Source: Thermoanaerobaculia bacterium (GTDB lineage Bacteria; Acidobacteriota; Thermoanaerobaculia; Gp7-AA8). From it: a stretch of DNA of 64,000 nt. The stretch lies in assembly GCA_038244715.1 (NCBI GenBank), contig JBBRTE010000015.1:38956-102955 (forward strand). Direction: 5' to 3'. The translations under genes and the position numbers were made by a program. This document shows positions 28,932-46,953 of the stretch, piece by piece (the stretch's first letter is position 1; each line of letters opens with the position of its first letter). Below the pieces are notes generated by a model. That model had not been told where the DNA came from. It worked only from the letters and a program-made list of their open reading frames with translations, and ran no database searches.

Positions 28932-29210
28932 ATGTACGACCGACAAGTGATCGCGATCCCCGTGGGCATGGACGACACCCGCTGGCTCGTCATTCGCCGC
29001 GCGGCGGCCGGTAGCACGATCCAGGATCCGAACGATCCATTCCTGCTGAATCAGTTCGACGGGATGAGCAACGCCATCGACCACTACCCCGCGATGAGCG
29101 TGGACATGAAAGCGCGGCTGATGACGGCACCGGACGGGCGTGTCCTGGTCATCGCATTGAAGACGCCGGAGCCACCGCCGGCGAGACGGCATCCGGCGGA
29201 TCACTAGCCT
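28932..29210 (+). CDS. Small hypothetical protein (92 aa)
   Basis: ATG at 28932 preceded by GGAGG 6 nt upstream. MYDRQVIAIPVGMDDTRWLVIRRAAAGSTIQDPNDPFLLNQFDGMSNAIDHYPAMSVDMKARLMTAPDGRVLVIALK..., high GC3. Its 3' end overlaps the low-complexity tail of the convergent asnB-like gene by ~60 nt. Family not recognised. Confidence 0.35.
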
Positions 29211-31143
29211 CGTTGCGTCTGCGGTCCAGCCAGGCCTGGAACATCAGGATCGTCCAGAGGTACTGCTGCCACTCGCCACGACCGGCGACGTGCTCGGTCC
29301 ATTTATCGCGAACCAGCTCGACGTCGAAGAATCCCTCATCGCGCAGACGGCGCTCGCTCAGCAGCGACTCCGCCCACTCACGCAGAGGTCCGCGCAGCCA
29401 GGAATCCAGAGGAAGTCCGAAGCCCATCTTCGGACGGTTCGTCAGCGACTCCGGAACATAGCGCGCCAGCAGCTGCTTGAGGATCCACTTCCCGCCGCCT
29501 TCCCGAAGTTTCATCGACAACGGCAGCCGCCAGGCGAGATCGATGAGGCGATGATCGAGCAGCGGTTCGCGCGCTTCCAGACTGACCGCCATACTGGCCC
29601 GATCGACCTTGGTGAGGATGTCATCCGGAAGGTAAGAAACCTGGTCGAGGTACATCATCCGGTCGATGACGTCGGGAAGGTGCGGCCAGCCCCGGCGGTC
29701 CGTGATCGCGATCGGCAGTTCGCGAGCGCCCGGCACGACGCTCGGCCATTGCATGACCACTTCGCGGTAGAGCGCATCGGCGTCATCCGCCGTCATCGCG
29801 CGGGCCAGTTTGTGGATCCGCTCGCCGGCGCGCTCGCGCCGGAAAGCCCGCGGAACAAAACGACGCGTGGGCGACAGCAGCGTGTTCCATGTCCGGATCG
29901 GGACCGCGCGCATCGCAGCGGAGGCGATCGGTCGTGCGATTCGCGGAAGCGCCTCCACCTTGTCCCACAGGCGGCGTCCCAGGAAGTACCGGTGATAACC
30001 GCCGAAGAATTCATCCCCGCCGTCTCCGGAAAGACTGACCGTGACATGTTGCCGGGCCAGTCTTGAAACGAGGTAGGTAGGAATCTGCGACGAGTCGGCA
30101 AAGGGCTCGTCGTAGATGTCCGGCAGCATCGGGATGACGGCGAGTGCGTCGGAGGCCGTGACGTAGAGCTCCGTGTGATCGGTTCCGAGGTGATGGGCCA
30201 CCGCCGCGGCGTAATGGGCTTCGTCGTATTCGGCCTCACGAAATCCGATGCTGAAGGTTTTCACCGGCACGCTGCTCTGGGCCTGCATCAATGCGGTCAC
30301 GAGCGACGAGTCGATTCCACCGGAGAGAAACACGCCGAGCGGAACGTCCGACACCATCCGCAGCCGCACCGACTCCATCGCTACTCTCTCGAGCTCATCG
30401 ATGGCCTCGGCGTCCGTTCCGGAGAATCGATTGGCGGCGGCCCGTGTGATGACGTCGCGCAGGGACCAGTACTCGCGCTCGCTCCGCACGCCATCCGCAT
30501 CGAATGTCACGATCGTCCCCGGCCGTACTTTGAAAGCACCTTCGTAGATGCTGTACGGCGCGGGCACGTACGCGAAGCGCGTATACAACGCCAGCGCGCC
30601 GCGATTGATCGTCGTCGGGCACTCCTCGGCCACCGTCATCGCCTTCAGCTCGGAGCCAAACAGGATCGCGCGCGGCGTCGCGCTGTAGTAGAGCGGCTTC
30701 ACGCCCATGCGGTCGCGCACGAGGTGCAGCCGGCGCTCGCGGCTGTCCCAGACCGCGAATGCGAACATTCCGACAAACCGCTTGACCGTCTCGTCGAGAC
30801 CCCACGCCTCGAGCGCGGCAAGGATGACTTCCGTATCGGAATGACCGCGCCATTCCGGGGCGAGACCGGCGCGCTCCAGTTCCTTTCGGATCGACGCAAA
30901 GTTGTAGACCTCACCATTGAAGACGATCGTGTAGCGGCCGCTGACGGACTGCATTGGCTGATGTCCCGCCGGCGATACGTCGATGATCGACAGGCGGCGG
31001 AACCCGAGCGCGATTCCCGCTTCGACGTCCGACCAGACGCCGGAGTCATCGGGGCCGCGATGCGCGAGGCGGGCCGCCATCCGGGCTGCTGTCTCCGCAG
31101 CGCCGGTACCCTCTCGTCTCCAGATGCCTGCGATTCCGCACAT
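29149..31143 (-). CDS. asnB: Asparagine synthetase (glutamine-hydrolysing) family amidotransferase, EPS-locus type
   Basis: ORF 29149..31230 trimmed to ATG 31143, giving MCGIAGIWRREG with the catalytic N-terminal Cys2. SGGIDSS PP-loop ATP pyrophosphatase motif. 664 aa. Confidence 0.85.
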   Translation of the reverse strand: MCGIAGIWRREGTGAAETAARMAARLAHRGPDDSGVWSDVEAGIALGFRRLSIIDVSPAGHQPMQSVSGRYTIVFNGEVYNFASIRKELERAGLAPEWRGHSDTEVILAALEAWGLDETVKRFVGMFAFAVWDSRERRLHLVRDRMGVKPLYYSATPRAILFGSELKAMTVAEECPTTINRGALALYTRFAYVPAPYSIYEGAFKVRPGTIVTFDADGVRSEREYWSLRDVITRAAANRFSGTDAEAIDELERVAMESVRLRMVSDVPLGVFLSGGIDSSLVTALMQAQSSVPVKTFSIGFREAEYDEAHYAAAVAHHLGTDHTELYVTASDALAVIPMLPDIYDEPFADSSQIPTYLVSRLARQHVTVSLSGDGGDEFFGGYHRYFLGRRLWDKVEALPRIARPIASAAMRAVPIRTWNTLLSPTRRFVPRAFRRERAGERIHKLARAMTADDADALYREVVMQWPSVVPGARELPIAITDRRGWPHLPDVIDRMMYLDQVSYLPDDILTKVDRASMAVSLEAREPLLDHRLIDLAWRLPLSMKLREGGGKWILKQLLARYVPESLTNRPKMGFGLPLDSWLRGPLREWAESLLSERRLRDEGFFDVELVRDKWTEHVAGRGEWQQYLWTILMFQAWLDRRRNEASDPPDAVSPAVAPASSMR

Positions 31144-31147
31144 GGTT

Positions 31148-32095
31148 TCAGCGCCGGGAGGACTCGAACCACGCGATGGTCTTTGCAAGGCCGGCTTCGA
31201 ACGTGGTGGTGGCCCGGAAGCCAAACTCACGTTTCGCGCGAGTCACGTCGAGCATGCGCCGTGGCTGACCGTTCGGCCTGCTGGTGTCCCAGATGATCTC
31301 TCCGTGAAAGCCGGTCGTCCTGGCGATGATGTTCGCGAGCTCGCTGACGGCGATCTCTTCCCCGCGTCCGAGGTTCACCGGCTCCGTGCCCGAGTACTGC
31401 TCGGCAGCGGCAACGATTCCGATCGCCGCATCCTCGACGTAGAGGAACTCCCGCGTCGGCGTCCCATCGCCCCAAAGCACGACGGTGCGATCACCACGAT
31501 CCCGCGCTTCGATGAATTTGCGGATCATCGCAGGGATCACGTGGCTCGTCTCCAGATCGAAGTTGTCGCGCGGTCCATAGAGATTCACCGGCAGCAGGTA
31601 GATGCCATTGAATCCATACTCCTGCCGATACGCCTGCAGTTGCACGAGCAGCAGTTTCTTGGCCAGACCGTAGGCGGCGTTCGTCTCCTCGGGATAGCCA
31701 TTCCACAAGTCTCCTTCATGAAACGGGACAGGAGTGTTCTTCGGATACGCGCAAATCGTTCCCAGGCAGACGAGTTTCTCGACACCAGCCAGTCGTGCCT
31801 CTTCGATGAGGTGGATGCCCATGACCGCGTTCTCGTAAAAGAAGCGGCCCGGGTGAGCGCGGTTCGCTCCGATGCCTCCGACGACGGCGGCCGCGTGAAT
31901 GATCAGATTCGGCCGCGTGGTGCTCAGGTACGCGCGGACAGCTGTGGTGTCGAGAAGATCGAGCGCGGAAGCCTTCGGTGCGAAGAGAGCGGCAGGGTTG
32001 TGCAGTTCCAGGCTGCTGCGAAGGAATCCCCCCAGAAAGCCACCGCCGCCGGTGAGAAGAACACGGCGATCGTTCCAGAAGGAGGTCATCGTCAC
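31148..32095 (-). CDS. fcl: GDP-L-fucose synthase (GDP-4-keto-6-deoxymannose 3,5-epimerase/4-reductase)
   Basis: 315 aa, [12 protein letters not shown]...YGLAKK...; SDR with Fcl/WcaG layout; 4-nt overlap with gmd. Confidence 0.85.
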
Positions 32096-33159
32096 CTCGC
32101 CCTGAGGCGCGCCTCAACGGCAGCAAGCTCGAGATCGGCGTCGACCATCAGATCGACCAGCTCCGCGAATGTCGTGCGCGGCGACCAACCAAGCTTCTCC
32201 TTCGCCTTGGAAGCATCACCGAGGAGCAGTTCCACTTCGGTCGGCCTGTAGTATCCCGGGTCGATTTCCACTCTCACGGCACCCGTCCGCCGATCGATCC
32301 CACGTTCCGCGGCATTGGCACCTTCCCAGGCCAACTCGACACCCGTGCGCGCGAATGCGCGATTGCACAACTCGCGCACCATATGTGTCTGTCCGGTCGC
32401 GATGACGAAATCCTCGGGCACATCCTGTTGCAGCATCCGCCACATCGCTTCGACGTAGTCTTTGGCGTATCCCCAGTCGCGCTGCGCGTCGAGATTTCCG
32501 AGATAGAGACGGTCCTGCAGTCCGTGTTTGATGCGGCTGGCCGCGCGGGTCACCTTGCGCGAGACGAAGGTCTCGCCACGGCGTGGAGACTCGTGGTTGA
32601 ACAGAATCCCGTTGACCGCGAACAACCCGTACGCCTCGCGATAGTTGACGGTCATCCAGTACGCGTAGACCTTCGCCGCACCGTAGGGGCTGCGGGGATA
32701 AAAGGGCGTCTGCTCGGATTGCGGAGTCTCTCTCACTTTCCCGAACATCTCCGAGGAGGAGGCCTGATAGATCCGCGGGCGGATTTGAAGCTCGCGGATC
32801 GCCTCCAACAAGCGAGCCGCCCCAAGTCCGGTCACGTCGCCTGTGTATTCGGGCGTATCGAACGACACCTTCACATGGCTCTGCGCGCCGAGGTTGTAGA
32901 TCTCGTCGGGGTTGACGATGCGAAGAATGCGATTCAGGGACGAGCTGTCGTTCAGATCGCCGTAATGGAGGATGAGCCGCCGCCCTTCCTCGTGCGGATC
33001 CTGGTAGATCGCGTCGAGGCGCCCCGTGTTGAAGGACGAGGAGCGCCGGATGATGCCGTGCACCTCGTAGCCTTTTTCGATCAGGAGCTCCGCGAGATAC
33101 GAGCCATCCTGTCCGGTGATGCCCGTGATCAGCGCTTTCCTGCGTGAAGGTTCTACCAA
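32092..33159 (-). CDS. gmd: GDP-mannose 4,6-dehydratase
   Basis: 355 aa, [41 protein letters not shown]...[10 protein letters not shown]; canonical Gmd. Confidence 0.9.
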
Positions 33160-33167
33160 GCATCACC

Positions 33168-34559
33168 TCATGCGCGAACGATGTTGATCCCGGCGTTGCG
33201 GGGAACGACGTTGCGCGTGTCGATGACGAGCTTCGCGCTGGCATACAGCTTCGGATCGGCGAAGTGCGAATGCGCCGTCGAGATCAGTACCGCATCGTGG
33301 TTGGCGAATTCGTCTGCCGTACACGGGACGGAGCTGAGGCTGATGTCGTGCTTCCTCCCCCGTCGGGCCACGGGCACGTACGGATCGCAGTAAGACACGA
33401 TCGCGCCCCGTTCCTGCAGAAGCTCGATCAGTTCGAACGATGGTGACTCGCGGTCGTCGTCGATGTCCGCTTTGTACGAGAGCCCGAGGACGAGCACCTT
33501 CGCGCCGGCGATGCTCTTCCCCATCTGATTCACCGCTTCCGTCGTGCGGTCGACCACATACCTGGGCATGGAGGCGTTGATCTCGCCGGCCAGCTCGATG
33601 AAGCGCGCCCAGGTCCCGTACTCGGCGGCCTTCCACGTCAGATAAAACGGATCGAGCGGAATGCAGTGCCCCCCCAGCCCAGGGCCCGGATAGAAAGGCA
33701 TGAACCCGAAGGGCTTCGTCTTCGCTGCGGCGATGACTTCCCATACGTCGATTCCCATGCGGTCGAACACGACCTTCATCTCGTTGACGAGAGCGATGTT
33801 CACGGCCCGGAAGATGTTCTCGAGCAGCTTCGCCGACTCCGCCACCTCCGCGCTGGACACGGGAACGACGCGGTCGATCGCGGATTCGTAGAGCGCCTGC
33901 GCCGCCGTCAGTGACGGCGCATCGATGGCGCCAACGATCTTCGGGATCGTCCGGGTGTTGAAGTGCTCGTTGCCGGGATCCTCGCGCTCCGGCGAGAAGG
34001 CGAGAAAGTAGTCGCGTCCGCAGACGAGGCCCTTCGCCTCGAACCGAGTCAGCAACTCCTCGCGCGTCGTCCCCGGATAGGTCGTCGACTCCAGCACGAC
34101 TAGCTGGCCGGGACGCAACCGCTCGGCAATCCCTTCCGCGGTCATCCGGACATACCTGAGATCGGGCTCGCGATGAACGCCCAGCGGCGTAGGCACGCAG
34201 ATGATGATCACGTCGCACTGCGCGAGGCGGTCGAAATCCGTCGTCGCCGTGACGCGGTCGCTACCAAATGCCCGCCGGATCCGCTCCTCGCCGATGTGTT
34301 TGATGTAGGACTCACCGCGGTTGAGGGCGGATGTCTTGTTGACGTCGACGTCGAAACCGATGACGGAAAAGCCCTGCTCCTCGAACAGAAGCATGAGCGG
34401 AAGACCGACGTATCCAAGTCCGATGATACCCACCACAGCGGTGCGAGCGTGGACCGCCGTCAGAAGTGTATCGAGCGTTTGTGTGTCTGTCGTCGGGGCG
34501 GTCACGGGAAACTCCTCCGGGGATTGGGCTAAGACACCTGGAAGTAGTCTTTGTACCAC
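33168..34559 (-). CDS. Nucleotide-sugar dehydrogenase (UDP-N-acetyl-D-mannosamine / UDP-GlcNAc dehydrogenase-like, WecC/TviB family)
   Basis: 463 aa, [14 protein letters not shown]...[12 protein letters not shown] (catalytic Cys). An alternative GTG start at 34505 would avoid a 31-nt overlap with the upstream gene. Confidence 0.8.
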
Positions 34560-35536
34560 GATACAAAACGAGCAATTCCCTCGTCGATCGTGATGGTGGG
34601 GCGAAAGCCGACGGCCTTCTCCAGCTCGGTGACATCGGCCCGTGTGGAAACGACGTCACCCGGCTGCATCGGCAGAAGGTTCAGCTGCGCCTTCTTTCCG
34701 AGCGCCCGCTCGACGGCCCCGATGTAGTCGAGCAGGAGCACGGGGCGGTCGTTTCCGATGTTGAAAATGCGATAGGGCGCGTTGCTCCTCCCCGGGTCGG
34801 GATTCGCTCCGCTCCACTGCGGATCCCCCTCCGCACGCCGGTCCAGCACACGAATGACCCCTTCCACGACGTCGTCGACGTACGTGAAATCCCGAATCAT
34901 CCGCCCTTCATTGAACACAGGGATGGGCTCGCCGGCGATGATGCCTCGCGTGAAGCGGAAGAGCGCCATGTCCGGCCGGCCCCACGGTCCGTACACGGTG
35001 AAGAAGCGCAGGCCGGTCGAGGCGACACCGAACAGATGCGCGTATGTATGCGCCATCAGCTCGTTCGCCTTTTTCGTGGCCGCGTAGAGCGACACCGGAT
35101 GATCGACATTGTCATGCTCGGAGAACGGCTGCTTCGTATTGGCGCCGTAGACCGAGCTCGAGGACGCATAGACGAGATGCTCGACACCATGGTGCCGGCA
35201 GCCCTCGAGGATGTTCAGAAACCCGGTGATGTTGCTCTCGGTGTATGCATGGGGGTTCGTGAGGGAGTAGCGCACGCCTGCCTGGGCCGCCAGATGGACG
35301 ACGCGCTGCGGCTTGTGGCGCTCGAACAATCCGTTGATGGTTGCGGCATCGGCCACGTCGGCGAGCACGAATTCGAACCCGCTGAATTTCCGCAGAATCT
35401 CCAGCCGCGCCTGCTTGAGCGAGGGGTCGTAATAGTCGTTGAGGTTGTCGATGCCGACGATCGGTTCGCCGCGGCTCAGCAGTGCCTTCGCGACATGAAA
35501 GCCGATGAAACCGGCGGCGCCGGTTACGAAGATCAA
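34529..35536 (-). CDS. NAD-dependent sugar-nucleotide epimerase (UDP-glucuronate/GlcNAcA 4-epimerase-like, CapI/WbpP family)
   Basis: ORF 34529..35758 trimmed to the TTG at 35536, which overlaps the upstream stop. [20 protein letters not shown]...YAATKKANE (YxxxK). Confidence 0.7.
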
Positions 35537-36252
35537 AGCGTGAACCCAGCCTTCCTGCCGTCTTCGAAAAACATCTTGACGGTGTCCAGCGAATAGTCGG
35601 CCAGGTCCTTCCCGATCAGCGGCAGCTTCTTGAGGATGTCGTTCGTGACGGTGATGATGTGGCAGCCGATGGCATCGGCCTGAATGATGTTGAGCAGCTC
35701 GCGCGGACTGGCCCAGATCAGTTCCGCCTCCGGCGCCGCTTTCAGGATGCCGACGCACTCCGTCATGAGCGGAACGGGATCGCGGCCGGTATCGGCGATC
35801 CGGCCCGCGAATACGGAAACGCAGGAGGGAGCGCCGTCCTTCACCGCGTCGACGACGTTGCGCACCTGGTCGACGGTCATGATGGCTGTGATGTTCAGCT
35901 TCACGCCTTCATTCGCCAGGCGCCGCACGAGGTCATACGCTGGCTCCCGCCGCGTGTTCGTGACCGGAATCTTTACGTAGACGTTCTCGCCCCACGTCGT
36001 GATATCGCGCGCCTGCCGCTCCATCTCGTCAAACTCGTCGGAAAAGACCTCGAACGAGATGGGACGGTCGGGGATGGCCTCGACGATGCTGCGAGCGAAC
36101 GCACGATAGTCCGTGAGCCCGGCTTTGTGCATCAGCGTGGGGTTGGTCGTGAAGCCCTTGATCCACGGCTTCGCATACATCTCCAGCATTCCGGCCTTTT
36201 CAGCACCGTCTGCGAAGATCTTCACCTGCAGTTGGTCGACGGATTTCATCAT
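35533..36252 (-). CDS. tal: Transaldolase / fructose-6-phosphate aldolase family protein
   Basis: ORF 35533..36486 trimmed to ATG 36252 (ATGATGA overlap with the gmhB stop). [41 protein letters not shown]...VKIPVT (Schiff-base Lys context). 239 aa. Confidence 0.8.
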
Positions 36253-36773
36253 TGGTTTGCCAGGATCCATTCGGCAGCATCGAGGAGTGAGGTGACACGG
36301 ACAAAGGGAGCGACCGGCTGCCGCTCCGCATAGCCCTGGTCGACAAAAAGACACTGGCAACCGGCGCGCTGCCCTGCTTCCACGTCGCGCCAGCGGTCGC
36401 CGATCATGTAGGACTGCTCCAGGAGGAGACCGTGCCTGCGCGCGGCATCGAGCAATGCGCCTGGCTTCGGCTTCCGGCAGTCGCACGCGTCGCCGTCGTG
36501 ATAGCAGGCGAGGATCTCGTCGAGCGGCAATGCCTGGCGAAGGTGTGCATGGATCGCTTCGACCGCTTCCCTGGTCTGCGTTCCGCGGGCGACGTCGGGC
36601 TGGTTCGTGACGACGATGAGGCGAAAGCCGGCCTGGTGCAGTTTCCGAAGGCCGTCTTCGGCCCCGTCAGCAAGCTCGAGCGCATCGACGGAGGGCGGCG
36701 CATACGGCTTCCCATCCCGCACGACCGCGCGATTGATCACGCCGTCGCGGTCGAGAAAAACGGCGCGCCCCAC
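36249..36773 (-). CDS. gmhB: D-glycero-D-manno-heptose 1,7-bisphosphate phosphatase (HAD family)
   Basis: ORF 36249..36839 trimmed to the GTG at 36773 that overlaps the upstream TAG. VFLDRDGVIN...LIVVTNQ HAD motifs I/II. 174 aa. Confidence 0.75.
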   Translation of the reverse strand: MGRAVFLDRDGVINRAVVRDGKPYAPPSVDALELADGAEDGLRKLHQAGFRLIVVTNQPDVARGTQTREAVEAIHAHLRQALPLDEILACYHDGDACDCRKPKPGALLDAARRHGLLLEQSYMIGDRWRDVEAGQRAGCQCLFVDQGYAERQPVAPFVRVTSLLDAAEWILANQ

Positions 36774-37369
36774 TACCGGGTCGACTCCCACTTCGTCTCC
36801 GCTGCCTTCAGCGCCGGATGGGACACCAGAAGATGCCACACCACGGCCTGGAAGGCTTCGGTGTGCGGGGTCACATTCTGAGGATTTACCGTGGGGATGA
36901 TCACGCAGGCATCAGCAACCTTCGCGGTATGGCCCCCATCCCGACCGACGATTCCGCAGATCGTCGCGCCGACCTCTTTGCCGTACTCGAGAGCAGCCAC
37001 GAGGTTGGGACTTACGTTCTTCTCCAGGTTTCCACCGCCGACCGAGAGAACGAAGAGGAGGTCCGACGGCGAGAGCCGGCTGACCTTCAGCCATTCGATG
37101 AAGACCGAGGCCCACCCCTCGTCGTTCGTCCGCGCCGTCAGCTCACTGACGTTGTCCGTCGGGGCATACGCTTCGATCCCACAGATCTTGCGAAAATCGT
37201 TGACGGCGTGCGAACAGTTCGCCGCGCTGCCGCCGACGCCGAGAAGGAAGAGCCTGCCGTGGCGCGCACGCAGCTCGGACAGGAGCTGCGCCGTCTTCTC
37301 GATCGCTTCGACATCGAGCTGGCCGATGATCGCGGCAGCCTCCTGGAGGTGCTGTTCCGTATAGCGCAT
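36773..37369 (-). CDS. gmhA: Phosphoheptose isomerase (SIS domain)
   Basis: ORF 36773..37633 trimmed to ATG 37369 (MRYTEQHLQEAAAIIGQL...). GRLFLLGVGGSAANCSHAVNDF SIS motif. 198 aa. Confidence 0.8.
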   Translation of the reverse strand: MRYTEQHLQEAAAIIGQLDVEAIEKTAQLLSELRARHGRLFLLGVGGSAANCSHAVNDFRKICGIEAYAPTDNVSELTARTNDEGWASVFIEWLKVSRLSPSDLLFVLSVGGGNLEKNVSPNLVAALEYGKEVGATICGIVGRDGGHTAKVADACVIIPTVNPQNVTPHTEAFQAVVWHLLVSHPALKAAETKWESTR

Positions 37370-37395
37370 GGACGACCGGCATTGTAACCGCGCCG

Positions 37396-38376
37396 TCACG
37401 ACATGAGGACTTTCGTCCCTTCGAAGTCGAAACGGAAGCGCACTTCGTCCAGCCCCGCCTCCCGCATCGCCTGCCGCAGTCCTTTTCGATCCTCGGCGTA
37501 GAAGAGAAGGAACCCACCACCGCCCGCACCGACGAGCTTTCCTCCGATGGCGCCATTGCGGCGGCCCAGCTCGTACCACTCGTCGATCTTCGGATTGCTC
37601 ATCCCTCGGGAGCGCCGTTTCTTGTGCTCCCAATGCTCGTGCAGCAGCTCACCGAACTCCTGACAATGACCCGCCTCCAGCGCGCGCTGGCTCCGGTACC
37701 CGAGGTCCTTGACGTAGTGGAGGTTGTCGATCATCTCGGGATCGGCCTCTTCGGAACGTGTCTTCTGATCCTGCAACAGGCTGCCCGCGCTCCGGGAGAA
37801 GCCGGTGAAGAAGAGGAGGAGGTTGTCCTCCAGCTCGAAAAGCGTGTCCATGTCGATGGCGAGCGGGCGGGCGGCGACGGTACCGTCGGGATGAAAATCA
37901 AAACAGGTGACCCCGCCATACGCGGCAATGTATTGATCCTGCTTTCCGACCGGTTCGTGCAGCCGCTCGATCTCGATCTCGCAGGCCAGCCGCGCGACCT
38001 CGCTGGAATGCAGGAGCCGCCGCCGGTGGGCATAGAGCGCCTTGACGAGGGCGGTGGTGAAACTTCCCGATGATCCCAGGCCGGTGCCGGAAGGAATCTC
38101 GGCGAGCGTGGTGATCTCGATCTGCGGCGTGCGCAGATTCATCATCCGTAACGCCTCGCGCAGGATGGGATGACGCACTTCCTCGACCGTGTCGACGTTC
38201 TCGATGTCGGAGTACTTCAGCCGGATGCCGGTACCGAACGGGCGGTTGACGGTCACGTAAACGTACCGGTCGATGGCTGCGGCGATGAGAAAGCCGCCGA
38301 ATTTCTCGTAATACGACGGAAGGTCGGTCCCGCCGCCTCCCAGGCTGATGCGCAGCGGACTGCGGGTGAAGATCAT
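37396..38376 (-). CDS. hddA: GHMP-family sugar kinase, D-glycero-alpha-D-manno-heptose 7-phosphate kinase-like
   Basis: 326 aa, PLRISLGGGGTDLPSYY...PSGTGLGSSGSFTTALVKAL GHMP motifs; adjacent to gmhA and gmhB. Confidence 0.7.
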   Translation of the reverse strand: MIFTRSPLRISLGGGGTDLPSYYEKFGGFLIAAAIDRYVYVTVNRPFGTGIRLKYSDIENVDTVEEVRHPILREALRMMNLRTPQIEITTLAEIPSGTGLGSSGSFTTALVKALYAHRRRLLHSSEVARLACEIEIERLHEPVGKQDQYIAAYGGVTCFDFHPDGTVAARPLAIDMDTLFELEDNLLLFFTGFSRSAGSLLQDQKTRSEEADPEMIDNLHYVKDLGYRSQRALEAGHCQEFGELLHEHWEHKKRRSRGMSNPKIDEWYELGRRNGAIGGKLVGAGGGGFLLFYAEDRKGLRQAMREAGLDEVRFRFDFEGTKVLMS

Positions 38377-39305
38377 CGAGGTTGCTCACTCTCCCGGAGC
38401 CATGCGTACGTCGTCGTCAGACCATCGTGCAGCGACGTCGCGGGAGGAAGATTCGCCAGCGTCCGCAGGCGGCTGCCATCAAGGACGCTGCGTTCCTGCT
38501 CTCCCTCTTTCGCAGCGGCCTGGTTTGCAGGAGTGTTCACGCCGGCAACGCCCGCGAGCAGATCGTAGAGCGCGCGGATCGAAGTCTCGACGCCGGTCCC
38601 GACGTTGTAGTGTCCCTGCCATTCCGCATCGCTGGCGGCCATGTTGGCCGCGACGACGTCGCCGATGAACACAAAGTCACGCGTCTGGGCGCCGGTCCCG
38701 TTGATGGTTGCGGCCTGTCCGTCGCGCAGCCGTCCGCCGAAGATGGCGACCACTCCCGCTTCCCCATGCGCGTTCTGCCGCGGCCCGTACACGTTGGCGT
38801 AGCGAAGCGCGACGGAGGAGAGGCCGCGCACCACGCGGTAGAAATGGAGGTAGTGCTCGACCGCGAGTTTGGCACAGCCGTACGGTGAGAGCGGCGCGGT
38901 CGGGTGCGACTCATCCTGCGGCACCTTGACGGGCTCGCCGTAGATGGCCCCTCCGGTCGATGCGAAGACGAAGCGCTTCACGCCTGCGTCCGCGGCCGCC
39001 TCCAGAATCCGCAGGGAGCCGACGACATTCACATCGGCATCGGCGGCAGGATCCTCGACCGACCGGCGCACGTCCATCTGCGCGGCGTGATGGTTGATCA
39101 CGTCCGGCTTCAGTTCGCGAATGAGTGCGCCCGCGGCGGCATCGCGGATATCCACTTCATGAAAGGCCGCCTTCGCGGGGAGGTTCTTCCGTTTTCCCGT
39201 CGAGAGATCATCGAGGATCGTCACGCGCCATCCGCGTTCGAGATAGGCGTCGGCGAGGCTGGATCCGATGAATCCCGCCCCGCCGGTGACGAGCACATGC
39301 TTCAT
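38373..39305 (-). CDS. galE: UDP-glucose 4-epimerase-like NAD-dependent epimerase
   Basis: 310 aa, [22 protein letters not shown]...YGCAKLAVE (YxxxK). Confidence 0.75.
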
Positions 39306-40213
39306 GAATGTGCCGCCGTGACGGAGCGCCCCACTCTCTGACTCTGCTCGGTGAGAAGATTGAGCAGGTATTGGCCATAGGTACTCCGCGCGAGTTTGGT
39401 GGCGAGATCGCGCAGCTGCTCGGTATCGATGAGTCCGAGGTAGTGAGCCACTTCTTCAGGACAGGCGATTTTCAACCCCTGCCGGAGCTCGACCGTCTCC
39501 ACGAAGTTTGCCGCCTGCAACAGCGACTCCTGCGTCCCCGTGTCGAACCAGGCAAATCCGCGTCCAAGTTGCTCGACGCGCAGTTCGCCGATCTGGAGAT
39601 AGACGCGGTTCAGATCGGTGATCTCCAGTTCGCCACGCGCGGAGGGCGAGAGGTTTGCCGCGAAGTCGCAGACGCGCTCATCGTAAAAATAGAGACCGGT
39701 CACGGCAAAGTTCGAGCGCGGCTTGGCCGGCTTCTCTTCGATGCTGACCGCGCGGCCCTGTTCGTCGAACTCGGCGACGCCATATCGCTCCGGATCGTTC
39801 ACGCGATAGACGAAGACCGTCGCTCCGCTGTCGCCGTATGCGGCACGGCGGAGCGAGTCCGGCAATCCATGTCCATAGAAGATGTTGTCACCCAGGATGA
39901 GACAGCTCGGCTCCCCCGCCACGAAGTCCCGTCCGATCAGGAAGGCCTGCGCCAGCCCACCCGGTTCCGGCTGGGCCGCGTACTCGATGCGGATTCCCCA
40001 CTGCGATCCGCTGCCGAGCAGTTTCTGAAAGCTGGCCTGGTCCTCCGGAGTGGTGATGATCAGAAAATCCGTGATGCCGGCGAGCATGAGCGTCGTCAGC
40101 GGGTAGTAGATCATCGGCTTGTCGTACACCGGCAGCAGCTGTTTCGACATCGCCGAGGTCATCGGATAGAGCCGCGTACCGGAGCCGCCGGCGAGAATGA
40201 TTCCCTTTTTCAA
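39302..40213 (-). CDS. rmlA: Glucose-1-phosphate thymidylyltransferase (RmlA family)
   Basis: ORF trimmed to the TTG at 40213 overlapping the upstream stop (TTGA). [46 protein letters not shown]...[10 protein letters not shown]...[12 protein letters not shown]...[10 protein letters not shown]; near motif-for-motif RmlA. Confidence 0.8.
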
Positions 40214-40929
40214 ACGTCCTCCACTTCGACCGCATATCGTGTCACACGTTCCCGCGGTCCGCGACGAGCGATCGCACCGACGACCGCTCCGAAAACGAAT
40301 CCGCCCACGTGGGCCCACCAGGCCACGCCGGCCGCTTCCTGCGTCGCGTGCGCCGCAGCGATGGTCAGGAAGCCGTTGAAGAACTGCATGCCGAACCACA
40401 CGGGCAGAAAAATCACGGCGCGGATCTCGATCAGTGCCCAGTAGATGACGAATGGCATAAGCGTGACGATCCGCGCCTTCGGACGCAGCACAAGGAAGGC
40501 TCCCAGGATGCCGGCAATACTGCCGGATGCACCGATCGAGGGGATCGCCGACTGTGGAAAGAGCATCGTGTGCGTGAGGCTGCCGATGACGCCGCAGAGG
40601 ATGTAGAAGGCCAGAAATGGCATCCGTCCCAACGCATCCTCAACGGCTCCGCCGAACACCCAGAGGTAGATCATGTTTCCGATCAGGTGTACGAAGCCGC
40701 CGTGCAGGAAGAGCGACGTGAGGAGCGTGATGCTCACCTCGAACATCGTATAGCCGTGCGCGGCGGGATGAACGAGGCGCGCCGGGATGAACCCGAAGAG
40801 ATTGATGAGGGTCTCCGTCCGCTGCCCGAGCACGACCTGCGCGACGAATACGACTACGTTGGCGGCGACGAGGGCGCGCGTGACCACGGGTGTCTCGCGT
40901 GGAGGCGAGGTGTGGCGGAGGGGAATCAT
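40210..40929 (-). CDS. Rhomboid-family intramembrane serine protease
   Basis: 239 aa, 6 TM helices, [13 protein letters not shown] (catalytic Ser in GxSG) and a downstream AHxxGFxxG-type His. Confidence 0.8.
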
Positions 40930-42050
40930 CCCAGTGCCGCGGCGATCTCCCGAACGACTTCAGCCATCTGGTCGCGCGTCAGCTCGGGGAAGATCGGGAC
41001 GGCCAGCGTCTGCAGCGCCGCGCGATCCGAGTGCGGGTACGGATCACCCGCCGAGGGGACGTTCGTGAAGCACTCCTGCTGCGGCAGCGTCAGCGGGTAG
41101 TACACCTCGCATCCGATCCCGGCGCCCCTCAGGTGGTTCATCACGCGATCGCGCGTGCCGTCACCATCCGTGAAGCGGACGATGTACTGGTTGTACACGT
41201 GATGGCGCCGCGGGAGTTCGCGCGGCAGGACGATGCGGTCGGCGAGCTTCGCGTCCGCGAAGAGCTCTCCATATGTCTCCGCATTGCGCCGCCGCGCCGC
41301 GGACCACGCGTCCAGGTGTGCCAGTTTGACCTGCAGGATGGCCGCCTGGAGCGCGTCGATGCGGAAGTTCCCGCCGACGTAGCGGTGGTAGTACTTCGGC
41401 CGCATGCCGTGCACGCGGAAGTCGATGAGCTTCTGGTAGGTGTCCTCGTCTTCGCAGGTCGCCGCCCCCGCATCGCCGAAGGCACCGAGGTTCTTGGACG
41501 GAAAAAAGGAAAACGCCCCGATCGTACCGAGCACACCTGCCCTCCGCCCGTCGTACTCCGCGCCAACCGCCTGCGCGGCATCCTCCACCACGGCCAGGCT
41601 GTGCTTGGCCGCGATGCGGTTGATCTCCTCCATCGCCGCGCATTGTCCGTAGAGGTGCACCGGCATGATGGCCCGGGTATTCGACGTGATGCGCGACTCG
41701 ATCTGCTGCGGATCGATGTTGTAGTCGGCCAGGTCGATGTCGACGAACACCGGGATGGCGCCCAGCCGGTCCACGACGCCCGCCGTGGCGAAGAAGGAGT
41801 ACGCCGGGACGATGACTTCGTCGCCCGGACCGACGCCGAGGACCATCAGGGCGATGAGGAGCGCGTCGGTTCCGGAGGAGAGGCCAACCGCGTACTTGCT
41901 GTGGCAGTACGTCGCGAAGTCGCGTTCGAAATCGTCGACGCGCTTGCCGAGGATGAAGTACTGCGAGTCATAGACCTCTTCGGTGACGCGGAGGACTTCC
42001 TCGCGAATCGTGGCGTACTGCAGCTTCAGATCGAGCAGCGGAATGGGCAT
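40926..42050 (-). CDS. DegT/DnrJ/EryC1/StrS-family PLP-dependent sugar aminotransferase
   Basis: 374 aa, ...SGTDALLIAL...AIMPVHLYGQ...SFFPSKNLGAFGDAG (PLP-binding Lys). Confidence 0.85.
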   Translation of the reverse strand: MPIPLLDLKLQYATIREEVLRVTEEVYDSQYFILGKRVDDFERDFATYCHSKYAVGLSSGTDALLIALMVLGVGPGDEVIVPAYSFFATAGVVDRLGAIPVFVDIDLADYNIDPQQIESRITSNTRAIMPVHLYGQCAAMEEINRIAAKHSLAVVEDAAQAVGAEYDGRRAGVLGTIGAFSFFPSKNLGAFGDAGAATCEDEDTYQKLIDFRVHGMRPKYYHRYVGGNFRIDALQAAILQVKLAHLDAWSAARRRNAETYGELFADAKLADRIVLPRELPRRHHVYNQYIVRFTDGDGTRDRVMNHLRGAGIGCEVYYPLTLPQQECFTNVPSAGDPYPHSDRAALQTLAVPIFPELTRDQMAEVVREIAAALG

Positions 42051-42260
42051 GGCGGCCGGAGTTTATCCCAACGCTTTTGCGCTGGGCCGCGTATCTAGGC
42101 TGCAAAACGCACACGACAACGGCCGCGGCCTGCGGCTGTTCGTGTGCGTTTTTCGTGTTGATTTACCACGATTCTTTTTGATGCTGTGATCGCATAAAAT
42201 TCTAGACATTCTTTTTCGAGACTGCGTATCAACGCGCAACTGATGAAGGAGAAAACTCGA

Positions 42261-43331
42261 ATGAACCTCAAACACATCGTCACCGCAGCAGCCCTCACCC
42301 TTTTTCCACTCGCCGCCAGCGCCACCACCCTGATCATTCCCGCGTCCGGCACGGGCCCGGGCGCCAACGACAGCCACTGGCAGACCGAGCTCACGCTTCA
42401 CAACACGAGCGCCAGTGCCATCACGGCCACGCTCACGTTCCATGACCTGGTCGGGACCGGCGAGTCGTCCAGCGTCACCGTGGCGCCTCGCGCGACCGTA
42501 TCCATCGCCGACGTCGTGGCCAGCAGCTTCGGACGCACCGGCGCAACCGGCGCCATCGACGTCACCTTCGACAGCGCGTTCGCACAGAAGCTGACCGTCA
42601 GCTCGCGCACGTTCAACAAGTCCGCGAACGGTGAATTCGGACAGGACATCCCCGCCATCGACCAGAGCACGGCGCCGACAGCGGGCGGACTGACGGTCCT
42701 CAGCGGACCGTCGTCGGCAACCGACGCGCGCTTCAACTTCGGTCTCTACGCGATCGACGCCGCCTCGGTCCGCTGGGAGCTCATCCGCGCCGACGGCACC
42801 GTGGCCGCGTCGCGGGAAGTCTCCTACAACGCGGGAACGCAAGTGCAGTACAACTCCGGCGTCTCCCTGTTCTTCAACGCTTCGGCGGAGGACAGAGACA
42901 CCGTGCAGGCTTTGGTCACGAGCGGCCACGCCCTCGCCTACGGCAGCATCGTCAACAACGCCTCGGGCGATCCGACCTACGTCCCGGGCGTTCTCGCCCG
43001 CGCCGACCTCCGCGTCAACTTCCTCGGCGTTGAATTCGGGGGATCCGGGAAGATCGATATCGCCGACGCCAACCACGACGGCGTGCTCGATCGCGCGATC
43101 GACATTCCGACCGGCAAGTTCCCGGTGGGCTTCCGCGTCGTCGTGACGTCGTCAGGACCGGTGACGTTCGAACTGGTGAACGCGCCGATCGATGTGAGGC
43201 TCGTCGACAACAACGGCGGAATCGTCTGGACTCCGACGACGATCGGCGGAGGCACGACCACCACCCTCACGCTGCGGATCACCGCTGACGGCACGACGGA
43301 GATCATCACGATCCCGGTAAACGTCCGCTAG
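42261..43331 (+). CDS. Secreted hypothetical protein
   Basis: ATG at 42261 preceded by an AAGGAG RBS; signal peptide MNLKHIVTAAALTLFPLAASA; Thr/Ser/Gly-rich beta-type composition; no family recognised. Confidence 0.6.
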   Translation: MNLKHIVTAAALTLFPLAASATTLIIPASGTGPGANDSHWQTELTLHNTSASAITATLTFHDLVGTGESSSVTVAPRATVSIADVVASSFGRTGATGAIDVTFDSAFAQKLTVSSRTFNKSANGEFGQDIPAIDQSTAPTAGGLTVLSGPSSATDARFNFGLYAIDAASVRWELIRADGTVAASREVSYNAGTQVQYNSGVSLFFNASAEDRDTVQALVTSGHALAYGSIVNNASGDPTYVPGVLARADLRVNFLGVEFGGSGKIDIADANHDGVLDRAIDIPTGKFPVGFRVVVTSSGPVTFELVNAPIDVRLVDNNGGIVWTPTTIGGGTTTTLTLRITADGTTEIITIPVNVR

Positions 43332-44731: not shown

Positions 44732-44826
44732 GGGCGCGAACCGCCCCGATCGGACAAGGGGCGTTCAGCGAACAACGTAGCCGACTGACAAGACCTCTTC
44801 TCCGGTTTCGAGAATGAGGTTTTTTG
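44732..44826 (+). promoter_or_regulatory. Putative his attenuator: alternative GGGGCG/CGCCCC hairpins plus terminator hairpin with U-tract
   Basis: GGGGCG(44732-37) / CGCCCC(44743-48) / GGGGCG(44759-64) can pair alternately. Terminator CCTCTTCTC-cggtttc-GAGAaTGAGG (44794-44819) is followed by TTTTTT (44820-25). The GAGG of the 3' stem doubles as the RBS for the hisZ ATG at 44832. Confidence 0.5.
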
Positions 44827-44831
44827 ACTTT

Positions 44832-45716
44832 ATGGCCGCGAAATCGAGATACCCCACTGGTGTTCATCCGCTGCTGGTCGAAGAGACCGCGCGGCGGAGG
44901 CGCATCGAAGCCCGCTTCGTCGACACCTTCGAGAAGGCGAGCTTCTCGGAAGTGATCCTGCCCATCATCGACTACGTGGAGCCGTACGCGCCGCTGGTCG
45001 ACAGCGCGGCGGCGAAGCAGAGTTATCGGTTCATCGATCGGGAAGGCGACCTGGTCGCCATCCGTGCCGACTTCACGCCGATGCTCGCACGTGCCCTCTC
45101 CCCCACCCTCGACGCGGGCACGCTCCCGCTCCGCCTCTTCTACCGCGGTGACGTCATCCGCGTGGAAGCGTCACGCCTCGGCACGAACAGGGAGTTGTTC
45201 CAGATTGGCGCGGAGATCGTCGGCGACGACTCGATCGATGCGGACGTGGCGATGCTCCATCTCGCCGCCGAGCTCGGGCGTACCGACGAAAGCGAGCCCG
45301 CGGTGGTCTACAACGATGTCTCCATCGCCACGTCGCTGATCGCACAATCCGACGCCGTCCGCGAAGCACTGGCCGCCAAGCGGATGACCGCGGGCGTTCC
45401 TGCCGCGCTGCGGACCATCGTGGCGAAGCTCATCTCCGGCGAGGCCACGATCGATGACGTCGCGCCGTTCGCACCGGAGGCGGCGGCCAGGCTCTGCGCG
45501 ATCGGCGATGCGCTCGCCAGCGATTCTCTCTTTTCCCTGCACCTCGACGACATCGACGGGAGCGCCGGCTATTACACCGGCCTCCGCTTTCGCGTCTACG
45601 CAGGCCGCGCTCGAGCAAAGGTCGCTCAGGGCGGACGCTACGACACTCTCTACGAACGCTTCGGCCAGCGCGCCGCGGCCATCGGATTCACCTTCACTCT
45701 CGACGACCTGGATTGA
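44832..45716 (+). CDS. hisZ: ATP phosphoribosyltransferase regulatory subunit
   Basis: Class II aaRS-like HisZ (FRYERPQ-type region present as FRVYAGRARAKVAQGGRYD). The track start at 44814 lies inside the terminator stem, so the ATG at 44832 is preferred. Confidence 0.8.
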   Translation: MAAKSRYPTGVHPLLVEETARRRRIEARFVDTFEKASFSEVILPIIDYVEPYAPLVDSAAAKQSYRFIDREGDLVAIRADFTPMLARALSPTLDAGTLPLRLFYRGDVIRVEASRLGTNRELFQIGAEIVGDDSIDADVAMLHLAAELGRTDESEPAVVYNDVSIATSLIAQSDAVREALAAKRMTAGVPAALRTIVAKLISGEATIDDVAPFAPEAAARLCAIGDALASDSLFSLHLDDIDGSAGYYTGLRFRVYAGRARAKVAQGGRYDTLYERFGQRAAAIGFTFTLDDLD

Positions 45717-45721
45717 ACGAC

Positions 45722-46333
45722 ATGCGCATTGCCATTCCCAAAGGACGACTGCAGGACCGCGCCCTCGGCGTCTTCGCCGGAGCCGGGTACAACGTGCCCA
45801 CGGACAACGACCTCAAGACCCGCAAGCTGGTGTTCGAGCGTGATGGGATCGAGTGGATCTTCGTCAAGGACGGCGACGTACCGGTCTACGTGGAGCACGG
45901 CGCCGCCGACGCCGGCATCGCCGGACTCGATCAGATCCTCGAGCACGAGTGCACCGCCTACCAACCAGTCGAGTTCCCGTTCGGCCGCTGTCGGATGATG
46001 CTGATCGCCGCTCCCGACGCACCGCCGCTGACGAAAGTGGCGACGAAGTATCCGCGCATCACGCGCCAGTTTCTCGAGAGCCGCGGGATCCGCGCCGAGA
46101 TCGTGCCGCTCAACGGTTCGGTCGAGCTGGCCGCCGTGCTGAATCTGACCTCGCACGTGGTCGATCTCGTCGAAACGGGAGAGACCGTGCGCGTGCATCA
46201 CCTGGAGTTGCAGGATGTGATCGCGGAAATCAGTCCGCGGCTGATCGTCGGGAAGAACTTCTACCGGACGGAACAGAAGCTCGTGCGCGACATGATCACG
46301 CGCATCGAGGAGGCGATGAATGTCGCGCGTTGA
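45722..46333 (+). CDS. hisG: ATP phosphoribosyltransferase (short form)
   Basis: MRIAIPKGRLQDRALGVFAGAG...; the alternative TTG at 45713 overlaps the hisZ stop. Short HisG is consistent with the presence of HisZ. Confidence 0.88.
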   Translation: MRIAIPKGRLQDRALGVFAGAGYNVPTDNDLKTRKLVFERDGIEWIFVKDGDVPVYVEHGAADAGIAGLDQILEHECTAYQPVEFPFGRCRMMLIAAPDAPPLTKVATKYPRITRQFLESRGIRAEIVPLNGSVELAAVLNLTSHVVDLVETGETVRVHHLELQDVIAEISPRLIVGKNFYRTEQKLVRDMITRIEEAMNVAR

Positions 46334-46428
46334 GTGCCACGGCGGCGGGGTCGCCCGGTTTCGTGATCGCGCGATTGCGGCCTGTTCGCTAAGGCAAATC
46401 TGGTCTCCCATCCAGAGTGCAGCCGCCG

Positions 46429-46583
46429 ATCGTGAGGTCCTTCGCCCCCGCGCGAGCGGGGGAGAAGGTGGCCGAAGGCCGGATGAGGGGGCTCTGATCG
46501 GCGCGCAATGCCACGCCCCTCACCCGCACTCCGCTTCGCTCCGTGTCTCCCTCTCCCCGCTGTCGCGGGGCGAGGGTTGCTCG
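46429..46583. repeat. REP-like palindromic intergenic element, copy 1 (~155 bp)
   Basis: Near-identical to 46723-46877 (2 mismatches). Contains the palindromes CCCCCGCGCGAGCGGGGG and CCCCGCTGTCGCGGGG. Confidence 0.7.
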
Positions 46584-46722
46584 CGCTCAAACAGCGGGCC
46601 GGGGTTGCCTTCGACGACGTTTGGGCGTCGTCCCTTCCTGGACCAGGGAGATGCTCTGAATCGCAAGGGCTCGACGGCGGTTGAGCCTGATCGCTCGATC
46701 CATCAAGGTCTACAGGCTCTGA

Positions 46723-46877: not shown

Positions 46878-46953
46878 GTGGGGAGGATTGGTGAAGAGAT
46901 CGAAAATCCCCATCGCGATTTCCAATCCGACCGATCTTTGCTCACCGTACAAG

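Follow-up and report, generated by a model that had tools for sequence, protein, structure and literature searches.

Background

The closest described counterparts of the genes reported here belong to pathways that supply activated sugars of seven or eight carbons. The GDP-heptose pathway, which serves S-layer glycans, capsules and O-antigens, comprises GmhA, HddA, GmhB and HddC, members of the isomerase, GHMP kinase, HAD-IIIA and NTP-transferase families, respectively, and the ADP-heptose pathway comprises GmhA, HldE and GmhB. Here, we describe a module assembled from the same families, located on the minus strand of a 64,000-nucleotide (nt) stretch of DNA (hereafter, the window) from a Thermoanaerobaculia bacterium (assembly GCA_038244715.1, contig JBBRTE010000015.1, positions 38,956-102,955 of the forward strand), in which four adjacent genes encode a GHMP-family kinase, a SIS-domain isomerase (SIS), a HAD-IIIA phosphatase (HAD) and a transaldolase (Tal). 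The module is real and is not a canonical GDP-heptose pathway with a helper enzyme but a reduced form of an unannotated cassette in which the transaldolase is obligatory.

A transaldolase also opens the lincosamide octose (Lmb) pathway of Streptomyces lincolnensis and S. caelestis, known from lincomycin biosynthesis: LmbR moves a three-carbon unit from fructose-6-phosphate or sedoheptulose-7-phosphate onto ribose-5-phosphate, giving octulose-8-phosphate (PMC5854111, PMC7014725). According to two further reports, the isomerase LmbN, the kinase LmbP, the phosphatase LmbK and the guanylyltransferase LmbO then lead to GDP-octose, and the lmb gene listing given there names LmbM an epimerase, LmbL a dehydrogenase and LmbZ an oxidoreductase (PMC4351081, PMC12945683). 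Tailoring of the GDP-octose is assigned to LmbM, LmbL, LmbZ and LmbS (PMC5854111, PMC7014725, PMC4351081, PMC12945683).

Another set of genes relevant to this comparison comes from Coxiella burnetii, which cannot make phase I lipopolysaccharide (LPS) without CBU0678, a homologue of HldE in which the two domains are swapped. The authors give the function of CBU0678 as unknown and describe an operon shared with the short-chain dehydrogenase/reductase (SDR) genes cbu0676 and cbu0677; nearby lie cbu0674 and cbu0673, annotated as 'phosphoheptose isomerase' and 'histidinol-phosphatase', respectively (PMC5843353, PMC13552124, PMC9997736).

The sugar-1-phosphate logic of the Lmb-type and heptose-type pathways is known. 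The reading that we favour, with confidence about evenly divided between it and its competitors taken together, is that a higher-carbon sugar is made by a so far uncharacterised pathway, widespread and spread by horizontal transfer, of which the four genes form the core, in which Tal would be obligatory and the product, by analogy with the Lmb enzymes, would most likely be an octose.

Searches and scope

Equivalog calls were made with NCBIfam profiles at their curated cut-offs, and domain families were assigned with Pfam. Families of Tal homologues were obtained by searching all representatives of clusters formed at 50% identity (E <= 1e-30). For gene context, one genome per species was scanned with a 16-sequence alignment as the query, yielding 80 loci, which are the best matches to the window Tal (62-90% identity). 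Gene content around Tal was determined by tblastn, for which the proteins of the window and those of a reference cassette served as queries, and linkage counts were restricted to the 49 loci in which Tal is flanked by 5 kb or more in either direction.

Four coupled genes of known families

A preliminary description of this DNA had reported a four-gene minus-strand module at 35533-38376, and all four open reading frames (ORFs) are present there (Table 1). In forward coordinates Tal precedes the phosphatase gene, as that description had it; in the direction of transcription the order is kinase-SIS-HAD-Tal and Tal comes last. The junction between the HAD stop and the Tal start reads ATGATGA, and that between the SIS stop and the HAD GTG start reads TAGTG, so that both overlaps stand as first described; the gap between the kinase stop and the SIS ATG is 26 nt, not 27. 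The coupling extends outward on both sides, with an ATGA overlap between the kinase gene and the SDR gene upstream of it (SDR1) and TTGA between Tal and the downstream SDR gene (SDR2).

Tal scored 339.8 bits against the TIGR02134 profile (cut-off 281.95) and is thus a full member of this transaldolase family. Its Asp15, Glu68 and Lys94 align with Asp6, Glu60 and Lys86 of the Thermoplasma acidophilum transaldolase, in which the lysine forms the Schiff base and the aspartate and glutamate act as the acid-base pair. Phe148, aligned with the Thermoplasma and Thermotoga transaldolases, occupies the position of the tyrosine of fructose-6-phosphate aldolase (FSA). Because the catalytic lysine, glutamate and aspartate are kept and Phe148 stands in place of the tyrosine, Tal is a true transaldolase and not an FSA. 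The scores against the FSA models (87.6 bits against 245.95 for TIGR00875; 51 against 214 for NF009299) are far below the cut-offs, and the presence of Phe148 and Glu68 instead of the FSA tyrosine and glutamine rules out the FSA identity that the preliminary description had named among the findings that would undo its proposal. The identity of a sulfofructose transaldolase was rejected as well, the respective PDB matches being weak (E ~1e-8). Tal therefore resembles other TIGR02134 transaldolases in passing the trusted cut-off and keeping the Asp/Glu/Lys/Phe set, and differs from them in that the gene of the window clade forms part of a sugar-activation module, with which it is fused in some cases, instead of being a stand-alone pentose-phosphate enzyme.

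The names gmhA, gmhB and hddA, which had been given to the other three genes, are unjustified because all three proteins fall far below the curated cut-offs. The closest PDB relatives of the kinase are the heptokinases 3k85, WcbL (4usk) and Cj1425 (4n3o), with E-values of 7e-50 to 5e-40. Fucokinase follows at 5e-20, and mevalonate kinase and galactokinase come no closer than 1e-12; the last two identities, which the preliminary description had also named as refuting its proposal, were rejected, given that the heptokinase structures are far closer. The kinase scored only 169.5 bits against the HddA model NF049969 (cut-off 600). The kinase is heptokinase-like and neither a galactokinase nor a mevalonate kinase, and it is not an HddA equivalog. 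HAD exceeded the cut-offs of the broad models TIGR01656 (125.8 bits) and TIGR01662 (92 bits) and missed those of all three GmhB models (73.5 against 250 for NF050049, 92.4 against 149.6 for TIGR00213 and 112.8 against 178 for NF006506). It matches GmhB structures in the PDB at an E-value of 1e-18 and carries the C-x-H...C-x-C loop (CYHDGDACDC) that is typical of GmhB and HisB-N phosphatases. HAD is predicted to remove the terminal phosphate of a sugar 1,n-bisphosphate, and Tal to make the ketose phosphate that is isomerised by SIS.

SIS scored 46.8 bits against the GmhA model TIGR00441 (cut-off 209.45) and 40 bits against the other GmhA models (NF0105xx; cut-offs 265-320). In an alignment with Burkholderia pseudomallei GmhA, SIS keeps the residues corresponding to His64 and His183, whereas the catalytic Glu68 is replaced by Asp58 and Gln175 by Glu171. 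The phosphate loop, S-T-S-G-x-S in GmhA, reads S-V-G-G-G-N-L-E-K-N-V-S in SIS, with a six-residue insertion, and five residues are deleted after the first active-site helix compared with the Burkholderia enzyme. His54, Asp58, Glu171, His179 and the S-V-G-G-G...S-x-N pattern are invariant in 69 SIS homologues from other genomes. Judged by this conservation, SIS represents an isomerase subfamily in its own right, kept under constraint, and not a GmhA in the course of drift; its remodelled phosphate loop is compatible with, and not diagnostic of, an octulose-8-phosphate substrate.

Linkage and fusions across phyla

The operon that contains the module is syntenic in related metagenome-assembled genomes (MAGs) of Thermoanaerobaculia and other Acidobacteriota, with protein identities of 70-94% (kinase 91-94%, RmlA 91-92%, Tal ~90%, SIS 87-89% and HAD 70-76%). 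Far beyond these relatives, the Tal search recovered at least 730 clusters from dozens of phyla. The 80 loci span Acidobacteriota, Alpha-, Beta-, Gamma- and Deltaproteobacteria, as well as Legionellales/Coxiellaceae, Chloroflexota, Planctomycetota, Omnitrophota, Elusimicrobia, Bacteroidota, Spirochaetes, Chlorobium and Actinomycetes. Among the 49 well-flanked loci, the variant SIS gene is present in all but one (48/49), followed by HAD (42/49), the GHMP kinase (35/49) and a small nucleotidyltransferase (28/49), and SIS, HAD and Tal are mostly immediate neighbours. Since the operon is syntenic in relatives and the SIS-HAD-Tal core recurs across phyla, the arrangement is not due to chance. The proteins of the window and of the cassette in a Bradyrhizobium MAG are 71% (kinase), 73% (SIS), 68% (Tal) and 53% (HAD) identical, and such high identity across phyla points to horizontal spread under strong purifying selection. 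Composition was considered as a mark of horizontal origin and rejected, the GC content being flat at 0.62-0.64.

In addition to being neighbours, these genes are repeatedly fused. HAD-Tal fusion proteins were found among the homologues (P0122, P0125, P0138 and P0153), and in-frame HAD-Tal fusions are present in three assembled genomes (L008, L011 and L059). A Tal-SIS fusion (P0128) is 52% identical to the window SIS over 192 amino acids (aa), and a SIS-Tal fusion with the opposite domain order (P0129) is 57% identical to it over 122 aa. Because SIS, HAD and Tal are invariant, the kinase and nucleotidyltransferase are interchangeable and fusions exist, we consider Tal an integral enzyme that feeds the isomerase.

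Some representatives of the 50%-identity clusters of the Tal family (P0189, P0126 and P0216) have other architectures, namely an N-terminus resembling a GIY-YIG/NUMOD3 homing endonuclease followed by Tal, a tandem Tal-Tal, and a PDZ/radical-SAM-like domain with a partial Tal; these may be mobile-element insertions or gene-calling artefacts. A DNA search of Escherichia coli genomes with the SIS-HAD-Tal region of an enterobacterial MAG yielded no match, so that no E. coli O-antigen of solved structure can serve as a reference point.

The full cassette and its variants

The complete form of the cassette is found in Rhodoblastus sphagnicola DSM 16996 (L062), the Bradyrhizobium MAG (L028) and many other loci. 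Its genes encode, in order, a GT2 glycosyltransferase, an LPG_synthase_TM membrane protein, an SDR epimerase, a UDPG/MGDP-dehydrogenase-family protein, an adh_short reductase, a Gfo/Idh/MocA oxidoreductase, the GHMP kinase, a 234-aa NTP-transferase, SIS, HAD, Tal and a PMT_2 (GT-C) transferase. A complete cassette is also carried by plasmid 3 of Lawsonia intracellularis, an obligate intracellular pathogen of pigs (NC_008014.1 13328-31915, L085), as genes for GT2, SDR, SIS, HAD, Tal, LPG_synthase_TM, NDP-sugar dehydrogenase, a further SDR, Gfo, GHMP kinase and nucleotidyltransferase, and the SIS gene of the cassette is present on a megaplasmid of Rhizobium jaguaris. The NCBI product names on the Lawsonia copy are generic or misleading ('SIS domain-containing protein', 'HAD-IIIA family hydrolase', 'transaldolase', 'galactokinase' and 'nucleotidyltransferase family protein').

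The dedicated 234-aa nucleotidyltransferase lies between the kinase and SIS genes in most lineages. The enzymes of the distant cassette, like those of the window, score below the heptose cut-offs (157 against 600 for HddA, 80 against 300 for HddC, 51.6 against 209 for GmhA and 112 against 178 for GmhB) and, by these profile scores, the small nucleotidyltransferase is not an HddC equivalog. Across loci, SIS-HAD-Tal is constant and the activation part varies, consisting of a GHMP kinase with the small nucleotidyltransferase, a GHMP kinase with another NTP_transferase, or an HldE-like fusion in reversed order, with an N-terminal cytidylyltransferase-like domain and a C-terminal PfkB domain. The last variant occurs at L074 (6278-7843) and at L044, L046, L058, L068 and L072; the L074 type also has two SDRs, a Gfo-family protein and a dehydrogenase-family protein. 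The reversed architecture is abundant in metagenomes (6564 matches at E <= 1e-20); in a search with the L074 protein, among the matches listed, all were relatives at 79% identity or above.

No HddC-like or small nucleotidyltransferase was detected by tblastn in the whole 64 kb, nor by profiles, in agreement with the earlier statement that no HddC-like guanylyltransferase is nearby, and the only nucleotidyltransferase in the operon is the RmlA equivalog, which had been recognised as RmlA-like before and scores 40 bits against the HddC model (cut-off 300). Homologues of the small nucleotidyltransferase, dehydrogenase, reductase, Gfo protein, GT2 and GT-C of the full cassette were likewise missing from the 64 kb by tblastn. 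The window lineage is thus a reduced form of the cassette that has lost the dedicated nucleotidyltransferase.

An additional set of HAD (36% identity), SDR and SIS (37%) genes lies at 10049-13522 of an Anaerolineales locus (L018), 6 kb downstream of its Tal cassette; this set may be a canonical heptose cluster, in which case both pathways would naturally coexist.

Comparison with the described pathways

The four window genes correspond one for one to lmbR, lmbN, lmbP and lmbK, and the logic is the same: a transaldolase yields a ketose phosphate, an isomerase an aldose phosphate, a kinase the 1-phosphate, and a phosphatase and a nucleotidyltransferase follow, all encoded in one cluster, the genes of which overlap by 4 bp in lmb as well. 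Equivalents of all five enzymes (Tal, SIS, GHMP kinase, HAD and nucleotidyltransferase) are adjacent in L028, L062 and Lawsonia plasmid 3, whereas in the window four of the five are adjacent and the nucleotidyltransferase is RmlA-type only. The full cassette adds an LmbO-like enzyme and an SDR epimerase, an NDP-sugar-dehydrogenase-family protein and a Gfo/Idh/MocA oxidoreductase, which compare with LmbM, LmbL and LmbZ if these belong to the Pfam families that we take them to represent. The differences are as follows: the window module is set in an acidobacterial surface-polysaccharide context and not in an antibiotic cluster, it lacks a dedicated nucleotidyltransferase, and no carrier-protein domain is attached to its isomerase; in the widespread cassette, an adh_short reductase takes the place of the Lmb aminotransferase, and GT2 and GT-C transferases complete the set.

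With the GDP-heptose pathway, the module shares the enzyme families, and the enzymes of this pathway are the nearest solved structures to the window proteins. It departs from the pathway in that all the enzymes of the window and of the distant cassette are below the equivalog cut-offs, the isomerase active-site residues differ, the transaldolase is integral to the cassette and not known from the pathway, and the window has no HddC. The L074-type variant matches the published description of cbu0673-cbu0678 of C. burnetii gene for gene; the window itself differs from the Coxiella genes in having a GHMP kinase and not a PfkB kinase.

Literature searches on transaldolases in heptose, O-antigen or capsule clusters and on octoses in glycans returned no description of the cassette.

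Proposed pathway and alternatives

The view of the preliminary description that the genes form one functional module, of the type ketose phosphate to aldose phosphate to 1,n-bisphosphate to aldose-1-phosphate, holds. Building on the observed gene structure, family assignments, exclusion from the heptose equivalogs, cross-phylum linkage and fusions, we infer the acceptor, the chain length and the activating nucleotide and, by analogy with the GmhA/HddA/GmhB and LmbR/N/P/K pathways, the order of the reactions. Tal would move a dihydroxyacetone unit from fructose-6-phosphate or sedoheptulose-7-phosphate (S7P) to an aldose phosphate, creating a dedicated ketose phosphate; if LmbR is taken as the model, ribose-5-phosphate would most likely be the acceptor and octulose-8-phosphate the product. 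The variant SIS would turn the ketose phosphate into an aldose phosphate, the GHMP kinase would phosphorylate C1, and the GmhB-type HAD would strip the terminal phosphate to leave a sugar-1-phosphate, which a nucleotidyltransferase would activate; in the window lineage this could be the adjacent RmlA or an unlinked enzyme. SDR1 may then act on the product as an epimerase, ahead of its incorporation into the exopolysaccharide or surface glycan for which the genes around the operon code. The product of the cassette is probably an unusual seven- or eight-carbon sugar destined for the cell surface, and the full cassette, with its epimerase, dehydrogenase-family, Gfo-family and short-chain reductase proteins, may make an 8-deoxy-octose.

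S7P is a product of transketolase in essentially all bacteria. A pathway that starts from S7P needs no transaldolase of its own because transketolase already makes this substrate, and it is easier to understand why a transaldolase should be dedicated to the module and co-evolve with it if its product is a ketose phosphate otherwise absent from the cell. This consideration bears directly on the earlier proposal that the module is a self-contained supply line from the pentose-phosphate pathway to an activated heptose. In its developed form, the proposal holds that the module makes D-glycero-alpha-D-manno-heptose-1-phosphate from S7P, that Tal merely raises or secures the S7P supply, freeing a transferable cassette from the pentose-phosphate wiring of its host, and that an unlinked or RmlA-type nucleotidyltransferase produces the NDP-heptose; we regard this as the main alternative, though less likely than not. 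Transaldolase does make S7P from erythrose-4-phosphate and fructose-6-phosphate, heptoses are common in bacterial glycans, and the closest solved relatives of the three other enzymes are phosphoheptose isomerases, heptokinases and GmhB phosphatases. The best NCBIfam matches are likewise the GmhA, HddA and GmhB models, although all are below the cut-off, missing the curated thresholds by two- to four-fold, and HAD has the GmhB-type Cys/His loop, whereas SIS, like every member of its subfamily, has other residues in place of the GmhA catalytic Glu and Gln, and a remodelled phosphate loop. As a rationale, S7P supply is weak: this sugar phosphate, coming from transketolase, is ubiquitous and not limiting in normal metabolism, and Tal is the most tightly linked partner of the isomerase, even fused to it, so that near-obligatory linkage and fusions to SIS and HAD are hard to explain for a supply enzyme. 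To our knowledge, the characterised GDP-heptose clusters of Aneurinibacillus, Campylobacter, Burkholderia and Yersinia lack a transaldolase. In C. burnetii, the related-looking genes are annotated as heptose enzymes and required for full-length LPS (PMC5843353, PMC9997736), to be set against the view of the authors that the function of CBU0678 is unknown.

Two other explanations account for the transaldolase differently. Tal might build another non-standard ketose phosphate, such as a differently configured heptulose, from a different tetrose phosphate, or, from hexose-6-phosphate, a nonulose, so that the product would be neither the classical manno-heptose nor an Lmb-type octose. The obligatory, dedicated Tal, with its linkage and fusions, fits this equally well, the remodelled SIS site says only that the substrate is different, the full cassette is rich in tailoring oxidoreductases, and transaldolases accept several aldose phosphates (PMC5854111); such a route is without precedent, whereas the octose route is characterised, and no sequence feature points to a particular other acceptor, which makes it improbable in our estimate. 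Far less credible still is that Tal is a housekeeping pentose-phosphate enzyme placed by chance in a nucleotide-sugar operon. Tal is ~90% conserved among the relatives, its family presumably includes the only transaldolase of some bacteria, and the NCBI annotation pipeline (PGAP) gives the Lawsonia copy a pentose-phosphate Gene Ontology term; however, the neighbours of Tal are equally conserved (kinase, RmlA and SIS, at the identities given above), the linkage with SIS and HAD persists across unrelated phyla with differing surroundings, and multiple independent gene fusions occurred.

Several points weigh against the octose pathway that we prefer. For the kinase, isomerase and phosphatase alike, the closest relatives of known function act in heptose pathways, and the likeness to LmbR/N/P/K is one of enzyme logic. 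The remodelled SIS site indicates a changed substrate or stereochemistry, with no pointer to which. TIGR02134 ('transald_staph') presumably covers the sole transaldolase of Staphylococcus and Coxiella, and the family can thus be housekeeping; the linkage figures hold for the clade at 62% identity or more, and not for the whole Tal family, because the 80 loci are the best matches. The window lineage lacks the dedicated nucleotidyltransferase, and the part of RmlA, a candidate for activating the sugar-1-phosphate of the module, is uncertain because its gene, present in L005-L007, is missing from this place in the next relatives, L008 and L009. Finally, we know of no octose reported from a bacterial surface polysaccharide.

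A more specific form of the octose reading is that SIS, HAD and Tal, together with the kinase and nucleotidyltransferase, constitute an NDP-octose route that spans phyla; the lincosamide sugar pathway would then have its counterpart in primary metabolism here, and possibly its evolutionary origin as well; we put this forward tentatively, as somewhat short of an even prospect.

Implications

If the module makes a dedicated higher sugar, it represents a new and very widely distributed nucleotide-sugar pathway, the parts of which are currently annotated either generically ('SIS domain-containing protein', 'galactokinase' or, in Lawsonia, 'transaldolase - pentose-phosphate shunt') or, wrongly, as heptose enzymes. 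The pathway would provide a testable origin for the lincomycin octose genes, predict an unrecognised envelope sugar in Rhodoblastus sphagnicola, Rhizobium jaguaris and Lawsonia intracellularis, and offer a hypothesis for the genes of 'function unknown' that are required for the virulent phase I LPS of C. burnetii. Should the Coxiella match be confirmed, the cassette would have a virulence-relevant, genetically tractable representative. If the product is indeed an octose, the envelopes and exopolysaccharides of soil Acidobacteriota, rhizobia, methanotrophs and intracellular pathogens such as Lawsonia would be decorated with it, it would perhaps supply the sugar behind Coxiella phase I LPS, and eight-carbon aldoses would be a widespread, overlooked class of bacterial surface sugars. 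Were the product an ordinary heptose after all, heptose biosynthesis would still gain a new design feature, an obligatory transaldolase that is prone to fusion.

The surrounding glycan locus

The module lies within a tightly packed nucleotide-sugar operon (Table 1) with the order DegT aminotransferase, rhomboid protease, RmlA, SDR1, kinase-SIS-HAD-Tal and SDR2, followed by the sugar dehydrogenase part. SDR2 is a GalE/TviC-like epimerase, and the genes after it encode an NDP-sugar dehydrogenase, a GDP-mannose 4,6-dehydratase, an SDR resembling GDP-fucose synthase and an AsnB-type amidotransferase. On its upstream side, the glycan operon is bordered by tyrS and a histidine operon; downstream lie genes for a glycosyltransferase, a MatE/flippase-like protein and a methyltransferase and, farther away, for an XrtA/PEP-CTERM-type deacetylase and a phosphoglycosyltransferase. 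The neighbourhood is an exopolysaccharide or surface-glycan locus.

Table 1. Coordinates of the module and other features in the window
Feature	Coordinates	Strand	Basis and remarks
GHMP-family sugar-phosphate 1-kinase, 326 aa	37396..38376	-	Pfam GHMP_kinases_N/C; first of the four-gene core
SIS-domain aldose-ketose isomerase, 198 aa	36773..37369	-	Pfam SIS_2, 34.8 bits; distinct GmhA-related subfamily
HAD-IIIA phosphatase, 174 aa from GTG start	36249..36773	-	Pfam HAD; GmhB/histidinol-phosphatase-domain type
Transaldolase (Tal), 239 aa	35533..36252	-	TIGR02134; Pfam TAL_FSA, 141 bits; last of the core
SDR1, GalE-like NAD-dependent SDR epimerase, 310 aa	38373..39305	-	Pfam Epimerase, 202 bits
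RmlA equivalog (glucose-1-phosphate thymidylyltransferase)	39302..40213	-	TIGR01207, 483.1 against cut-off 360.65
Rhomboid-family intramembrane protease	40210-40929	-	Within the nucleotide-sugar operon
Enclosing nucleotide-sugar operon, tightly packed	29149..42050	-	Pfam/NCBIfam families and synteny in relatives
AsnB-type amidotransferase	29149-31230	-	Top match XrtA-system amidotransferase model, 585 against cut-off 817 (below)
XrtA/PEP-CTERM-type polysaccharide deacetylase	19114-19938	+	TIGR03006, 316.6 against 276.2
Histidine-biosynthesis operon: hisZ-like, hisG, hisD, hisC, hisH, hisA/F	44814-51870	+	
Long ORF	42243-43331	+	Coding-like GC content at third codon positions (GC3)
Long ORF	23291-25030	-	Coding-like GC3
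Long ORF	21070-22503	-	Coding-like GC3
Long ORF	14162-15562	+	Coding-like GC3

SDR1 is below the cut-offs of both the GalE (167.6 bits) and the dTDP-glucose dehydratase (129 bits) models, and its active-site region reads STGGAIYG...YGCAK, without the Asp-Glu of the dehydratases. Homologues of SDR1 (43-44% identity) adjoin variant cassettes in L041 and L064, and SDR1 is a candidate tailoring enzyme for the activated sugar. The glycan locus bears markers of the exosortase (XrtA/PEP-CTERM) system, namely the deacetylase and the AsnB-like amidotransferase, and because of these, the sugar may enter a PEP-CTERM-associated exopolysaccharide. The four long ORFs listed in Table 1 have no match in Pfam or NCBIfam and possibly encode polymerase/ligase-type membrane proteins or lineage-specific proteins.

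The histidine operon lies just upstream of the glycan operon; the module HAD belongs to the histidinol-phosphatase-domain superfamily, and the corresponding Coxiella gene is annotated as 'histidinol-phosphatase'; membership in this superfamily is a possible source of mis-annotation. The rhomboid gene is coupled to the upstream DegT aminotransferase gene by an ATGA overlap and also to the downstream RmlA gene. The position of this protease, odd company in a nucleotide-sugar operon, is kept in L005-L008.

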